Origin: a virus | Lineage: Duplodnaviria; Caudoviricetes | DNA length: 61,374 bases | Direction: 5' to 3' (one strand) | Virus record (IMG/VR): IMGVR_UViG_3300037484_000565 | Span: 1 to 61,374 of that record | Part shown: positions 1,699 through 47,783 of the stretch, piece by piece | How positions within the stretch are numbered: position 1 is the first letter of the stretch | Layout of the letters: every line of letters starts with the position of its first letter | Made by a program: the position numbers and the translations under genes | Notes under the pieces: generated by a model | Told to the model about the DNA's origin: nothing | Database searches by the model: none | Seen by the model: only the letters and a program-made list of their open reading frames with translations

Positions 1699-3267
1699 TC
1701 ACAACTCCTGCAGCGCTCGCGCGAAATCATCCTCGTTGTATCCCAGCGCTGTCAGTTTGTCGCAGAGCACTCCGAGATCCATCATTGTCGGGAAACCGTC
1801 CTGGTCGACGTCCTCGCCTGGCTGGGCAGGTCCGCCCATGTAAAGGCGCCGCGTGAGTTTCTTGAAGTCCTCCATGTCGATTACTCCGCTGCCGTCGACG
1901 TCGCCGATCAGTTGATCGAACCCCATGGTCACGTCGGCGTACGTGTCGAGCGGTCCGCCCTTGGCAGTCACTTCGATCACGATCTTCGTCCGGCTGCCGT
2001 CAGGCCAATCAGACGATGGCACGGTCAGCGGTCCGAATTTTCGATGCCAGACACTCTGGCTATTGACGACTTCGACGAATGGCCAGAAGTCTCCCGGGTC
2101 GACGCTGCCCAAGTTCTTCTCGAGTTCATACAGGCCGTCCGGTTGAATCATGGCGACCTGCGCCATGCGCGACGGATCGCGGCCCGGGTACCACTCGGAA
2201 TCGTTTCCTGTCATGTGGAGATTAACGCGATCGATCTTGACGCCACCGTACGGCACCTGGTCATCCTGTCCGAGCTTGGGACGGAATTCCACCAAGTAAT
2301 GCAGATCGGGATCTCCGGCCGCTGCCGGGAGCATGTATATCTCATTCGGAATGATGTGATGCGACGTGGGTGAACCGGTCACGAGAACCGGCGTCACGAA
2401 TCCCATCTGCACGCGCGAATGCGCACAGAAGCCGCAAGGACGATTCCCAAGCGTGCCGTTCCAACTGCCCGACGCCATCACGCACGCCTTGTCCTCACCT
2501 CGGCTGCTGCCATCCGTGTCATAGTGATCGGCGACGCCGAACGCATGGCCAATCTCGTGGCAGTGCACACCGATCGTCATGTCGCCAGGATTGCGCCAGT
2601 ACTCCGGCGCCGTGTAGTAGTCACTCACCGTCACGTTGCCGGTCACGAGCATGGGCGGCACGCCCCACTTGTGCGACCAGATATCGTTCGGATTGCCGGT
2701 CAGCTCGGCGCCGCTGCCGGCATGGATGATCCCGAGACCATCGACCAGGCCGTCACCGTTGTTGTCGTACTGGCGGAAGTCGATGCCGGCGGCCACGGCC
2801 TTCAGCACGGCATCGCGCGTCATTCCCTGGGCGTTGCGGGGATAGGAGCCGAAGCCGTAGTTCGCATTCACGTAGTAGGCGTAGGTCTGATCAAGGGTGA
2901 CAGGCACGATGTCACCAACCAGGCGCAGGGCATCCAGCGATTGTCCCAGGTAGTAATCGGCAACGGATTGCCGCGGGCCGTCGATGTCGAAGATCAACTC
3001 CTCGAATGTTGATAGGGCGGTCGCGATCTTCTTGTCCTTGAAGCTTACCGCGAGAATGAGGAACTGGAAATCACGCGGACCGGCAGGACTCCCGGCCGCA
3101 AGCGCCGGTCTCCGCAGATGCCCCTTCATGTCGAACTTGGACGGGGCATTCAATCCCGCTGTCTGGAGGATCCCACCGCGAGCCATCTTCGCCACTTTCC
3201 GCGCAAGCCCTTCCGAAAAGGGCGCATCGTCGTGCGGCGGCATCATGCAGAACTCTCGTCTCTCCAT
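1699..3267 (-). CDS. M6 family (immune inhibitor A-like) metalloprotease with C-terminal dockerin/EF-hand-like repeat
   Basis: YDNNGDGLVDGLGIIHAG, IWSHKW, HEIGHAFGVADHYD zinc motif, MASGSWNG; C-terminal GDVDGSGVIDMED...DVDQDGFPTMMDL. Confidence 0.9.
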   Translation of the reverse strand: MERREFCMMPPHDDAPFSEGLARKVAKMARGGILQTAGLNAPSKFDMKGHLRRPALAAGSPAGPRDFQFLILAVSFKDKKIATALSTFEELIFDIDGPRQSVADYYLGQSLDALRLVGDIVPVTLDQTYAYYVNANYGFGSYPRNAQGMTRDAVLKAVAAGIDFRQYDNNGDGLVDGLGIIHAGSGAELTGNPNDIWSHKWGVPPMLVTGNVTVSDYYTAPEYWRNPGDMTIGVHCHEIGHAFGVADHYDTDGSSRGEDKACVMASGSWNGTLGNRPCGFCAHSRVQMGFVTPVLVTGSPTSHHIIPNEIYMLPAAAGDPDLHYLVEFRPKLGQDDQVPYGGVKIDRVNLHMTGNDSEWYPGRDPSRMAQVAMIQPDGLYELEKNLGSVDPGDFWPFVEVVNSQSVWHRKFGPLTVPSSDWPDGSRTKIVIEVTAKGGPLDTYADVTMGFDQLIGDVDGSGVIDMEDFKKLTRRLYMGGPAQPGEDVDQDGFPTMMDLGVLCDKLTALGYNEDDFARALQEL

Positions 3268-3307
3268 CGCCTATCCTCTCTTGTGCGGCTGCCAATCGCG
3301 GCCGGAA

Positions 3308-3934
3308 TCATTCCTCTTCGGTACCAATGAACCAAGCCCTCACCCCGTCGACAATCCCTAGCGCGGCGCGATCAAGGAATTGCCCGTCCGATAAAAGCGC
3401 GCGATCCTCCGCGCTGGTGATGAATCCCAGTTCGACGAGCGCGGCCGGGGACTTCGTGTGTTTCAGCACGTACAACGAGTGATCGAGGAAGGATTCGTCA
3501 TTGAGGATGCCGTCCTCCTCATCAGCGAGCACTCCCGCGTTGTACTGCGGCATTTGCGGCGCCTGCTCCTGGATCATGGCGAAGATCGATCTACTCAGGG
3601 ATTTCCCGAGCGTCGAGGCTTCGCTGTGGAAAACCGACACGCCGCGGGCGATCGCTCCGGTCGGACCAGCGTTGATGTGCAGGGAGACGAAAGCGGCCGC
3701 GCCGTTGTGGGCAGCGACCGCCTGGCGTTCGATCGTCACGCGCCGCTTCAGAGAGATAAACTTGTCGCTCGTTCGCGTGAGTACGGTCGCCATGCCGTTC
3801 CTGTCTGCCCATTGATTGACCAGGCCTGCAAGGCGGAGCACCAGGTCCTTCTCGCGCATGCGGCCATCGACTGCACCCGGATCCGCACCGCCGTGGCCCG
3901 GATCGATGATGAGGAGTTGTTTCATGTCGGGCAT
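3308..3934 (-). CDS. N-acetylmuramoyl-L-alanine amidase (Amidase_3), endolysin
   Basis: IDPGHGGADPGA, EKD, FVSLHINA, LVELGFIT motifs. Confidence 0.93.
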   Translation of the reverse strand: MPDMKQLLIIDPGHGGADPGAVDGRMREKDLVLRLAGLVNQWADRNGMATVLTRTSDKFISLKRRVTIERQAVAAHNGAAAFVSLHINAGPTGAIARGVSVFHSEASTLGKSLSRSIFAMIQEQAPQMPQYNAGVLADEEDGILNDESFLDHSLYVLKHTKSPAALVELGFITSAEDRALLSDGQFLDRAALGIVDGVRAWFIGTEEE

Positions 3935-3940
3935 TTGGTC

Positions 3941-4123
3941 TTATCCTTCCCAGTTGGTGGTCGCCGGCAAGACAACCTCTTTTGTGCCGCTGGTGACGGC
4001 TTCGCACTTCGGGCATTTGGGCATCGCTTTGATTCGTTTCGCGCTGAATTGCGCCCACTGCGTCCCGCAGAGTCCACAGACGAACAGTTTCCAATACAAG
4101 GTCATGTCCTCGAATTGAGCCAT
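3941..4123 (-). CDS. Small zinc-ribbon protein
   Basis: Start at MAQFEDM; CGLC...CPKC; fills the gap between neighbours. Confidence 0.6.
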   Translation of the reverse strand: MAQFEDMTLYWKLFVCGLCGTQWAQFSAKRIKAMPKCPKCEAVTSGTKEVVLPATTNWEG

Positions 4124-4127
4124 GGAA

Positions 4128-4883
4128 TTACCCCGCAATGATGATGCTGCCCCCGCGCAATTCCTCTGGCACAAACGGCTTGAGCAATTCCACCGCGATC
4201 TGCGTGATTCGCACATCTCCTTCAGCGGCTGGGATTGCTGGCGGGGCATCCCCCGCCGTTCCCGCACCGAACCAATCGACCTCCGCGTCACCAACATAGC
4301 GCGTGTAGATGCCGCACCATCCGGCCGCACTGACCGAGCTGTCGGTTGTCTCGATATTCCAAGTGGCTGGCTCGGTCTCGGCATCGCTCCAAATCCGCAC
4401 CTTGATCGCCGTCCCGGAGACCTGCAGTCTGAGCCAATACCAGCGATCCTGCACGATCGACGGCGCTACGATCGCGGATCCGATGCTCGTGTCTGTGCCA
4501 TTCACCAGCTTGTAGAGTTTGAGCGTGCTGCCACTCAGATCGACGGTGACGGTATAACCATCTTCGCCGGCGCTGTCTTCGTTTCCCCGCGCGATCAGCC
4601 CGCAACTGCGCTGCAAGGCGCCCAAGCTGAGCCAGCGAATGCGAACAGCCAGGTCCACGTTGGCATTGCTGCCGACGTCATCCCAGGACAGCGCACTGTT
4701 TCCGGACGAGATGTAATCGACTTGCAGGACTTGGTCGCCGAAGCTGCCGCCAGTAGTATCGGCTTCGACGTCGAAGTCCGCCTTCGCCGCGGAGATCGCA
4801 GCGTCGAAACGCGCGGTCCAGTCCGACGGCTGCGATCCGGCAACATAACCACTATCGGCGAAATCTGTTGAGAATTGCGTCAT
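4128..4883 (-). CDS. Tail-associated beta-sandwich/lectin-like protein
   Basis: Position after tail tip genes; WYWLRLQVSGTAIKVRIW beta-rich fold. Confidence 0.6.
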   Translation of the reverse strand: MTQFSTDFADSGYVAGSQPSDWTARFDAAISAAKADFDVEADTTGGSFGDQVLQVDYISSGNSALSWDDVGSNANVDLAVRIRWLSLGALQRSCGLIARGNEDSAGEDGYTVTVDLSGSTLKLYKLVNGTDTSIGSAIVAPSIVQDRWYWLRLQVSGTAIKVRIWSDAETEPATWNIETTDSSVSAAGWCGIYTRYVGDAEVDWFGAGTAGDAPPAIPAAEGDVRITQIAVELLKPFVPEELRGGSIIIAG

Positions 4884-45808: not shown

Positions 45809-46276
45809 CTACACTCCATCGTGCCCGGTAAACTGCGGCAGTTGCTTGAACTGATTCGCCTCGATCTGTTGATAGAACGTTTCCCCGTTGAGGTTACACA
45901 CATAGGGCAGGAACACTTCCTGTGTCTTAACCATGCCGGTTTCAATCAGGGCCAGCTGCGCCTGTACCCAGCGGAGAATCTGCCGCCATGCAATGCGGAT
46001 CGCCTGCTCCAAATCAGCAGGTGCCTTGTCGTTGTGGTTGAATGACTGACGCCGCTTCTGGAGAATGTCAAATATCGGTGTAGGGTTTATCGGCAGGCGG
46101 AACGGAATTTCCACGTCGCCCACTCGGATCGCAAAGGTGAGCGCCGTTACCACGCCGCTTTTGTAATCGTTCATCACCCGCGTAGCCCCGGCCATCGCCA
46201 AGCATTCAGCGACTTCGCCCGCCGTCTTGTTGGCGTCGATCTTAGTGGTTTCCATGAATAGCGTCTTGGTCGTCAC
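45809..46276 (-). CDS. Conserved phage hypothetical protein
   Basis: FRLP..QAIRIAWRQILRWVQAQLALI..EVFLPY. Confidence 0.65.
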   Translation of the reverse strand: MTTKTLFMETTKIDANKTAGEVAECLAMAGATRVMNDYKSGVVTALTFAIRVGDVEIPFRLPINPTPIFDILQKRRQSFNHNDKAPADLEQAIRIAWRQILRWVQAQLALIETGMVKTQEVFLPYVCNLNGETFYQQIEANQFKQLPQFTGHDGV

Positions 46277-47094
46277 TCGCCCCCCTCCCCGCGCCGGGTG
46301 AGCGCGTCCGCGTCCATTATTCGCCGCCCGATCCATTCGACGACTGGGACGGGGACTGCGTTCCCGAGCGCCTTGTAACGCGGTCCGTCAGGCGGGTCCA
46401 GTTGTCCGGAAACCCCTGAAGTCTCTCGCACTCCGTTGGAGTCAGGCGTCGCACTAACAGCGATGCCGTGTTGGCTTCGTCCATCGAGAGTAAACATTGG
46501 TCCGCCGCACCCGATTCCGATTCCGCATTCGTCGCGCATTCTCGGCGCATTGACTGCCTGTAGAATGTAGTTCCGTGCAATGGGATTTGAGTTTCCGTTG
46601 TGGGCTTCGGCTCCGCTGACGGTTCCGACAACGATGTTGGCCCCGTCGTCACAGCCCCGGCTGCCAACCCTTGAAGTGCCCTCAGTAATTGTATGGGCAA
46701 TGTCCTGCCGCGCTTTTCGGCTCTGCGGAGAATTCCCCGTGCCGCCCTGGGACTCAAATAGAACCGAGACGGGACAGGGTGTTCCAAGACATCCGACAAT
46801 TCACACTCTACGGCGTCGTTGGGCGAGTCCGAAGTATCGAGCATCAAGTATTCGCCACGCCACGCCATACCCGATCCGGCCCAGGGCATGTAAAACGAGG
46901 GCGAAATCTCGGCCTCCGTTGGAAGACAGAAGTCCGGGCACGTTCTCAATGAGAATCCAGCGGGGGCGTTCGAGTTCCAAAACTCGCACAAGCTCCCAGA
47001 ATAACCCGCTTCGATCTCCTGCGAGTCCTGCGCGTTTACCGGCGACGCTGAGGTCTTGACAGGGAAACCCCGCCGCGATGAGGTCGATTGCCAT
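46273..47094 (-). pseudogene. C5 cytosine methyltransferase chain 2 (motifs IV-VIII and X) interrupted by one in-frame TGA at 46801-46803
   Basis: GFPCQDLS, ENV, QRRRRV*IVG, RYKALGNAV all in one frame overlapping chain 1. Confidence 0.65.
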
Positions 47095-47252
47095 TCTCGG
47101 ATATCCCCCACTTCCGGCTCTGCGCCGAAATTCTTTTTGTAGATCGATCGACAGAAGCGGTCGATTTCACATGACTTGACGCACCGTATTCCGACACGCT
47201 CCAGGGCGATACGGACGCCGCCAATTCCGCAAAAGAGATCGGCGAAGGTCAC
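46317..47252 (-). CDS. C5 cytosine methyltransferase chain 1 (motifs I-III, EcoHK31I-beta-like region, motif IX)
   Basis: DLFCGIGG, EID, GDI; LSDVLE..RFYLSPRAARGILRRAEKRG; RRLTPTECERLQGFPD. Confidence 0.7.
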   Translation of the reverse strand: MTFADLFCGIGGVRIALERVGIRCVKSCEIDRFCRSIYKKNFGAEPEVGDIREWQSTSSRRGFPVKTSASPVNAQDSQEIEAGYSGSLCEFWNSNAPAGFSLRTCPDFCLPTEAEISPSFYMPWAGSGMAWRGEYLMLDTSDSPNDAVECELSDVLEHPVPSRFYLSPRAARGILRRAEKRGRTLPIQLLRALQGLAAGAVTTGPTSLSEPSAEPKPTTETQIPLHGTTFYRQSMRRECATNAESESGAADQCLLSMDEANTASLLVRRLTPTECERLQGFPDNWTRLTDRVTRRSGTQSPSQSSNGSGGE

Positions 47253-47405
47253 TCGTTATCCTTCCCTCGCCGCTCCAGTTCCGCCACGCGCTTCTTGAGG
47301 CAGGACACTTCCGAGCGCAAATCCTCGATCCAGCATAAGAGCACCACCATCTTCGTCTCCGGCGTGTCTTGCGGATCGAAGTGGTAGGATGTGTTGGGGA
47401 TTATG

Positions 47406-47783
47406 TCAGGCATTCTTGGCCCTCTGCCACTCGGAATCGAGAGCGTCGAGTTCGCCAAGCTCATCACCCAAATGGTTACAGGCATCCCGATATGCGCCCC
47501 CCGCTGTCTTAAATGTCGCGTGCGCTGCATTGACAATTCGTTCCAGCAGTTCCGCCCGCCGCTTGAGGTAGGCGCACCCGGACTCGGACGGGATGCGGGC
47601 AATCCTATAATGTCCAGGATGATCGCATCGCTTAAACTTCGCTTCTGGCATAGACCCCGCGTGACTCCATCCGTTATCAATTGTCCATGTCGGCCTATGG
47701 ATAAAAACCGACACCCACGATTCCATCGGGGGGGCGACTGGCCCCACGCGCGAGACTTCGATTGCCGTCACTTCTTCTGACAT
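47406..47783 (-). CDS. Hypothetical protein
   Basis: GAGGAGG RBS. Confidence 0.55.
   Translation of the reverse strand: MSEEVTAIEVSRVGPVAPPMESWVSVFIHRPTWTIDNGWSHAGSMPEAKFKRCDHPGHYRIARIPSESGCAYLKRRAELLERIVNAAHATFKTAGGAYRDACNHLGDELGELDALDSEWQRAKNA

Follow-up and report, generated by a model that had tools for sequence, protein, structure and literature searches.

C5 DNA methyltransferases are generally treated as monomeric enzymes, M.AquI and M.EcoHK31I being the exceptions (PMC3404938). M.AquI (CYCGRG) is a natural two-chain enzyme, in which the alpha chain carries motifs I-VIII and the beta chain motifs IX and X (PMC3404938). In M.EcoHK31I (YGGCCR) the beta chain is encoded wholly inside the gene for alpha, in another reading frame; alpha has motifs I-VIII, motif X and the recognition domain, and beta has motif IX (PMC2836561, PMC3404938). 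The beta chain is made from start codons of its own (PMC2836561), and its N-terminal 42 or more residues matter for the association of the chains (PMC2836561, PMC3404938). Fragment complementation has also been documented for split M.HhaI, M.BspRI and M.SssI (PMC3404938). We have analysed a C5 methyltransferase gene in the IMG/VR virus record IMGVR_UViG_3300037484_000565; the window, as used below, is this full record of 61,374 bases, which is linear, with a CheckV completeness of 90 and a G+C content of 55-62%. The gene is spread over two overlapping reading frames of the minus strand, A and B, with frame B one base upstream of frame A. We think it probable, if well short of certain, that this is a phage C5 gene with an open reading frame (ORF) overprinted in the +1 frame on motifs IV-VIII, that motifs I-III have been fused to this +1 ORF, that the two products would form a two-chain enzyme, and that the copy in the window has been cut by an in-frame TGA.

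Frame A encodes chain A, an ORF of 311 amino acids (46317..47252, minus strand) for which full-length homologs exist. Its start is a GTG at 47252, with the Shine-Dalgarno-like sequence GAGGGAAGGA (47259..47268, minus strand) 6 nucleotides (nt) before it. The order of its parts is motifs I-III, a segment overprinted on the core of the gene, a conserved alternative segment (ALT), then a variable linker and motif IX, and lastly a tail in which motif X is read out of frame. The original prediction had placed motifs I-III, the alternative segment and motif IX in this frame, and their positions are confirmed by hidden Markov model (HMM) and Pfam matches and by tblastn. The N module of chain A (47094..47252, minus strand; residues 1-53) is the S-adenosylmethionine (AdoMet)-binding part, with motif I (FCGIGG), motif II and motif III (GDI; ..EVGDIRE). 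It corresponds to positions 1-56 of Pfam PF00145, and in a search of PDB sequences it matched residues 13-64 of M.HhaI with ~49% identity (E 6.5e-12); the matches of chain A in that search were confined to the N module and motif IX. The next ~95 residues (46833..47084, minus strand) are the frame-A reading overprinted on motifs IV-VIII; they have an HMM match, and are predicted with low confidence when the chain is folded alone. The ALT segment (..SPNDAVECELSDVLEHPVPSRFYLSPRAARGILRRAEKRGRTLPIQLLRAL; 46671..46832, minus strand) is conserved, shows the wobble pattern of the +1 frame described below, and includes two confidently predicted helices that are basic, RGILRRAEKRGR. It matches phrog_16143, labelled 'DNA methyltransferase', and has no family match in Pfam or NCBIfam. 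Chain A also holds the stretch ELSDVLE..RFYLSPRAARGILRRAEKRG, and motif IX, VRRLTPTECERLQGFPDNWT, lies at 46454-46395 (minus strand). TIGR00675 scores 63.3 bits on chain A against a cut-off of 100.65, and both Pfam and TIGR00675 match the chain at its two ends only.

Frame B had been proposed to start at its own ATG (47094) downstream of a run of G residues, and to carry motifs IV, VI, VIII and X as one ORF. The start and the run are as proposed, with a Shine-Dalgarno-like GGGGGA (47109-47104, minus strand) separated from the ATG by a 9-nt spacer. The motifs also lie where they had been placed. They do not lie in one ORF, an in-frame TGA at 46801-46803 having been overlooked. The ORF that begins at ATG 47094 thus comprises 97 amino acids (46801..47094, minus strand), with motifs IV (GFPCQ), VI (ENV) and VIII (QRRRRV), and motif X falls on a separate stop-to-stop stretch. 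The continuation of frame B after the TGA (46273..46800, minus strand) carries a VLFES.. linker, a target-recognition-like region, the out-of-frame reading of motif IX, and motif X, PRYKALGNAVPVPVVEWIGRRI (PRYKALGNAV; 46380-46318, minus strand), and ends at a stop at 46273-46275. The complete reading of frame B is AIDLIAAGFPCQ..ENVPG..QRRRRV, TGA, then IVGCLG..VLFES..GANIVVGTVSGAEAHNGNSNP..PMFTLDG..PDGPRYKALGNAVPVPVVEWIGRRI, with the stop at 46273. The 97-residue piece alone scores 119.1 bits with PF00145, at profile positions 57-156, and 116.9 bits with TIGR00675, where the cut-off is 100.65.

The overlap of the two frames, predicted at about 780 nt, is 778 nt (47094-46317). Full-length relatives aligned to the window by tblastn pass through the frames in the order A/B/A/B, switching at ~47094, 46540-46455 and 46392, and in frame B they align straight across the TGA. 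Motifs I, IV (PCQ), VI (ENV), VIII (QxRxR), IX and X of the C5 methyltransferases are all found at the locus, in two frames; no single uninterrupted polypeptide has the whole C5 domain, in which the frame switches three times and a TGA occurs once. Every piece is recognised as methyltransferase by itself, and the pattern is therefore far beyond chance. The neighbouring genes lie on the minus strand and are densely packed. The stop of the upstream ORF (47249-47680), a TGA at 47251-47249, overlaps the GTG of chain A as GTGA, and a second such GTGA overlap (46273..46276, minus strand) lies between the frame-B stop and an in-frame GTG within the downstream ORF (45809-46336, phrog_17260). Through these overlaps the upstream neighbour leads into frame A, and it is frame B that leads out to the downstream neighbour.

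The proposed resemblance to M.EcoHK31I holds at the level of layout, on which rather than on sequence the two were compared: in the window too a second chain lies in another frame within the gene and carries motif IX. The locus differs from M.EcoHK31I in having motifs I-III on the beta-like chain, so that neither chain has a complete AdoMet-binding and catalytic domain, and in that the alpha-like chain is cut by the TGA before the recognition region and motif X. A large chain with motifs I-VIII, the recognition region and motif X, as in M.EcoHK31I, is not present. With M.AquI the family has in common a two-chain C5 layout, some of the relatives typed below keeping motifs I-VIII together in one frame, with ALT, IX and X at +1. 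In the window, by contrast, motif X stays with IV-VIII and motifs I-III go with IX; the break points differ and the partition is not that of M.AquI. All ten motifs of the M.HhaI-like monomers are shared, together with the catalytic Cys of PCQ, the Glu of ENV, and QxRxR. The natural or engineered breaks named in PMC3404938, those of split M.HhaI, M.BspRI and M.SssI included, are described as falling within the variable region rather than between motifs III and IV; in the monomers and their artificial fragments no overlapping frame takes part. The dmt gene of the Salmonella phage SJ46 (P1-type, NC_031129.1) has ALT at +1 in its C5 part, following motif VIII (L324:1258-1422, 67.6 bits, open for ~125 codons); it differs from the window in having motifs I-X in one annotated frame, the +1 ORF being unannotated. 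A full-text literature search, with most subscription journals and REBASE outside its scope, returned no family-wide +1 ORF in C5 methyltransferases and no chain with motifs I-III and IX. Judged by sequence, the partition of the window is a rarer variant of the M.EcoHK31I-type layout, in which motifs I-III have moved to the beta-like chain.

A search with chain A gave 1183 proteins at E <= 0.001, the best 120 of which were classed with small HMMs for the individual pieces. Homologs with the same frame partition, for which the original prediction had recommended a search, were found: 21 of the best 120 matches, including the window, have motifs I-III, the overprinted segment, ALT and motif IX in one ORF (window type). 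The rest have the overprinted segment, ALT and IX (82), the overprinted segment and ALT only (9), motif X as well (5), or other combinations (3). Closest to chain A are P0002 and P0003, with 68% and 63% identity over 100% and 96% of its length, and 11 more distant proteins align with it end to end. The partition is common to P0002, P0003, the locus L085 and 17 further protein clusters, and the predicted placing of motifs I-III on the beta-like chain is real and inherited. The junction is conserved within clades, as GDIREWQSTSS in that of the window and DI.TCRGLT.S in the largest, and the spacing from DI to the equivalent of FPCQ is 10-11 codons in both. In a quick maximum-likelihood tree of 109 chains there are at least 8 changes of the window-type label, compared with a mean of 20.4 when the labels are shuffled. 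The tree has one pure window-type clade of 10, and the clade of the window has 3 members with a support of 99.

The start of chain B was followed through the same relatives. All of P0001-P0003 have Glu-Trp in frame A at this start (GAR TGG, hence RTG in frame B), and the G-rich stretch upstream of it is kept. L085, the sole other window-type locus found in DNA, has both frames open over ~1.2 kb, with frame B open from before motif IV through motif X. It has an in-frame TTG at 2584, which is 69 nt ahead of motif IV and is itself preceded by AGGA, 7 nt upstream. An independent start for chain B is thus plausible from the sequences. A metagenome scan for DNA resembling P0002 or P0003 gave 80 loci, the best with 56% identity, and none was of window type; a scan of genomes likewise gave no window-type locus.

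The TGA of frame B lies within motif VIII (QRRRRV, stop, IVG), and the corresponding part of frame A reads Cys-Glu. Relatives have Phe or Trp at the position of the TGA, QxRxRv(F/W)ivG. P0002 and P0003 have Cys-Gly in frame A where the window has Cys-Glu, so by codon logic their frame B must read TGG or CGG there. Frame B is open from the core through motif X in 15 of 15 distinct loci of M.EcoHK31I type or window type. A stop in the frame of motifs IV-VIII occurs in this region at nine loci, within motif VIII in the window alone and in none of the other eight. From this distribution the TGA looks private to this copy. Since a sense codon occupies this place in the nearest relatives, the copy in the window is probably a recently broken or inactivated member, or at best one that is weakly read through.

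The wider family was examined by typing 321 loci (160 from IMG/VR, 80 from GTDB genomes, 80 from metagenomes, and the window), with the frame of motifs IV-VIII taken as frame 0. Of these, 176 have ALT at +1 and motifs I-III, IX and X in frame 0 (one-frame type). A further 68 keep motifs I-VIII in frame 0 and have ALT at +1 together with IX and X; the M.EcoHK31I partition, with ALT and IX at +1 and X at 0, is found in 18; 15 have IX and X in the third frame; and 2 have the partition of the window. The remaining loci are odd in layout or incomplete. Altogether 308 of the 321 have ALT at +1, and it was read in 80 of 80 loci of the first set, which had been picked by their motif IV-VIII patterns alone. 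The hosts named in the genome records belong to the Actinomycetota, Bacillota, Pseudomonadota, Verrucomicrobiota and Spirochaetota. An ALT profile matched 5664 cluster representatives among 1.84 billion at E <= 0.001, and 4087 at E <= 1e-10; the matches are mostly of 130-230 amino acids, with ALT close to the C-terminus. The original prediction would have been undone by relatives with motifs I-VIII in one frame and a private frameshift in the window. In 299 of the 321 loci motifs I-III are indeed in frame 0 with IV-VIII, yet the closest relatives share the partition of the window.

Four observations bear on the +1 ORF itself. Between the beginning of motif IV and the end of ALT, the +1 frame is free of stops in 223 of 236 distinct loci, compared with 1 of 236 for the +2 frame, which typically has 4-7 stops; the pattern is stable from a G+C content below 45% to ~70%. 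When motifs IV-VIII were shuffled synonymously, 44.4 loci with a stop-free +1 frame were expected and 214 of 227 observed, the loci being related and so not independent trials. Stops in the +1 frame numbered 0.14 per locus where the shuffle predicted 1.69, while the +2 frame was unchanged (3.99 versus 3.79). Column entropy peaks at position 3 of the core frame up to ~nt 300, and then, from nt 301-330, at core position 1, which is position 3 of the ALT frame; after this switch, which falls at the end of motif VIII, the values are 1.2-1.5 versus 0.5-0.8. The same wobble switch is seen in the one-frame type alone (n=60, and n=31 distinct sequences) and in the M.EcoHK31I type (n=13). Lastly, in 180 of 267 distinct loci the +1 ORF has its first ATG between -60 and +14 nt relative to motif IV. 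Taken together, the stop-free frame, the shuffle, the entropy switch and the position of the ATG lead to the conclusion that the +1 ORF is translated and constrained throughout the family, one-frame genes included. M.EcoHK31I is probably one member of a large overprinted phage and prophage family. A bolder statement, on which we are close to evenly divided while leaning slightly against it, would make the +1 ORF an obligatory second subunit of a very large phage and prophage C5 family that includes the P1-type Dmt. In that case M.EcoHK31I would be the rule, there would be free redistribution of motifs I-III, IX and X over two and sometimes three frames, and the Rossmann fold of the window's enzyme would be built from two polypeptides of the same DNA.

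Several further features were seen among the typed loci. The one-frame methyltransferases have a conserved +1 ORF of ~150-210 amino acids, as in L004:2966-3478 within the methylase ORF 2818-4128, and gene callers often call the +1 ORF as a separate small protein. The IMG/VR loci L063, L055, L059 and L070, and 11 others, have motifs I-VIII in frame 0, ALT at +1, and the recognition region, IX and X at +2; each stretch stops shortly after the start of the next. In L174, L177, L178 and L189 (Collinsella), and in L176 and L133, motifs I-VI (or I-VII) are fused in frame to ALT, and motif VIII (..AWR.LDA..FGV.QRR.R..) is in another frame; these are either a further partition or decaying copies. In a blastn search of a phage collection, window positions 46696-46863 (query 390-557; motif VIII and ALT) were the sole part of the gene that matched distant phages of Vibrio, Escherichia, Salmonella and Pectobacterium. 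This stretch is doubly coding, and double constraint would produce a distant match limited to it.

Two observations concern the remainder of the gene. In a ~92% identical relative from a wetland metagenome of another study (run X2), 317 variable, recognition-like bases at 46455-46771 are replaced by 443 others, with both flanks alike; P0002 and P0003 are longer than the window by 21 and 42 residues, respectively, in the same region. The sequences suggest that the specificity region is exchanged in the manner of a cassette. In the clade of the window the N module resembles M.HhaI, with the identity given above, more closely than it does its counterparts in the family relatives (33-42%, tblastn), which hints that the N module (47094-47252) was acquired separately.

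On the reading that we favour, a +1 ORF is overprinted on motifs IV-VIII and extends beyond them, as in M.EcoHK31I. In the window's lineage the AdoMet-binding module with motifs I-III has become fused in frame to this ORF to give chain A, and chain B would be made from its own ATG at 47094 and carry motifs IV-VIII, the target-recognition region and motif X. The active enzyme would be assembled from both chains. With its N module beside motif IV and motif X of chain B, chain A would complete the Rossmann fold, and its middle part would pair with the motif VII-VIII strand of chain B. In this copy chain B is cut by the TGA in motif VIII, which most likely leaves it inactivated or, at best, weakly read through. 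The layout, its recurrence among relatives, the selection on the +1 frame and the private stop are seen in the sequences themselves; the assembly from two chains, the independent start of chain B and the loss of activity are inferred.

The two chains were modelled together, as had been recommended. Chain A and the two unaltered parts of chain B were entered as three chains with alignments A1, A3 and A4. The complex model scored 0.80, compared with 0.43 for the best of three controls; by a calibration whose counts are rough here, given three chains and alignments of our own, 0.80 is reached by 58 of 80 solved complexes and by 2 of 110 mismatched pairs. Between runs at least 59% of the contacts were common, and the predicted local distance difference test (pLDDT) value of the partner was at least 61. 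Residues 1-37 of chain A are predicted to contact residues 1-10 of chain B (the strand before GFPCQ) and the motif X helix. This arrangement is expected for the canonical C5 fold. Residues 120-155 of chain A contact residues 77-92 of chain B in the model, most tightly between A126-130 (GSGMA) and B77-82 (GVAWRI), which are encoded by adjacent, slightly overlapping DNA. The model supports a two-chain assembly, and it may have passed in part by likeness to solved monomeric C5 methyltransferases. The only confident parts of chain A folded alone are the ALT helices, residues 168-180 and 187-197. The poor fold of the lone chain is consistent with folding on a partner, and is no proof of it.

Three other accounts of the layout, or of the stop, can be set against this. 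That the layout is an artefact of sequencing or assembly, with indels, would be in keeping with the origin of the window in a metagenome assembly, and the original prediction had recommended checking reads for an indel near 47095. A Logan contig of run X1, a sediment metagenome that is probably the source sample, covers 46275-47400 at a depth of 24 with no differences and no indels, and the wetland relative is gapless over 46772-47160. With an independent assembler giving the same sequence and diverged relatives from other sources sharing the frames, this account was rejected and we give it virtually no credence; the layout is neither an assembly error nor a private frameshift. Under programmed frameshifting, ribosomes would slip by -1 between motifs III and IV, and shift again around IX, to make one polypeptide. 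The entry of the gene in frame A and its exit in frame B, each end GTGA-coupled to its neighbour, would suit this, as would the G5 run near the junction; slippage on the G run, however, would remove the motif III Asp, three shifts would be needed, and in M.EcoHK31I the beta chain has its own start codons (PMC2836561). Neither the window nor L085 has an X XXY YYZ heptamer in the part of frame A that runs from GDI to the beta-4 strand. Frameshifting was rejected as the principal explanation and strikes us as very improbable. The third account accepts the two chains and holds that the TGA is decoded, by read-through or as Trp, to give a full-length active chain B. The TGG or CGG that the nearest relatives must have at this codon is in its favour, and so is a consensus at depth 24 without a variant, although contigs hide minor variants. 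The G+C content speaks against it. TGA is moreover the commonest stop of the long minus-strand ORFs (42 of 71), and neighbours of 655, 584, 580 and 397 amino acids are uninterrupted with table 11, on which grounds TGA as a sense codon was rejected. The piece of the wetland relative that spans the TGA position has 29 differences from the window. We regard a full-length active chain B from this copy as improbable.

The strongest competitor is that the window-type loci are dead genes, in which a frameshift in the III-IV linker of an M.EcoHK31I-type or one-frame gene has joined motifs I-III to the +1 ORF, and that no such two-chain enzyme exists. One indel would suffice, since in most relatives the +1 ORF is open back to the III-IV linker (median boundary 38 nt before motif IV). 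The label changes on the tree are to be expected from such events, several window-type chains being isolated among those of M.EcoHK31I type, as independent frameshift mutants would be. Other points also weigh against the two-chain enzyme that we favour. Chain B of the window is broken by its nonsense codon, and the first frame-B start codon after the TGA is ATG 46539, with no earlier ATG, GTG or TTG. At the conserved junction L085 has CTG, which is not a canonical start. Window-type DNA loci number 2 of 321, the window and L085, and the other 19 are known as called ORFs only; the partition is known from sequences and models. In the complex model the ALT helices make no confident contact, and chain A folded alone has a mean pLDDT of 45, with residues 55-164 below 50. 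Against the dead-gene account, the fusion has been kept in the window's clade of 3 as well as in a pure clade of 10 diverged clusters, junction sequences are preserved inside clades, and the spacing between DI and FPCQ is fixed. Both frames of L085 are intact, the putative starts and Shine-Dalgarno-like sequences are kept in P0001-P0003, and the complex model passes its controls. We consider the dead-gene account unlikely, while giving it more weight than the alternatives above, and prefer the inherited two-chain layout with a stop peculiar to this copy.

The analysis has consequences for annotation. The contig should carry a two-frame methyltransferase with a nonsense codon rather than a methylase of 311 amino acids, and in phage methyltransferases more widely the +1 ORF is either unannotated or called instead of the true gene. 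In hundreds of phage and prophage loci, from many bacterial phyla, an overprinted ORF in the style of M.EcoHK31I has been conserved under purifying selection, and the motifs of the enzyme have been dealt between the frames in at least four ways. If the partition seen in the window is active, a C5 methyltransferase could receive its AdoMet-binding subdomain in trans, from a chain that the same DNA encodes in the other frame. This bears on the origin and persistence of overlapping genes, and on the design of split methyltransferases.

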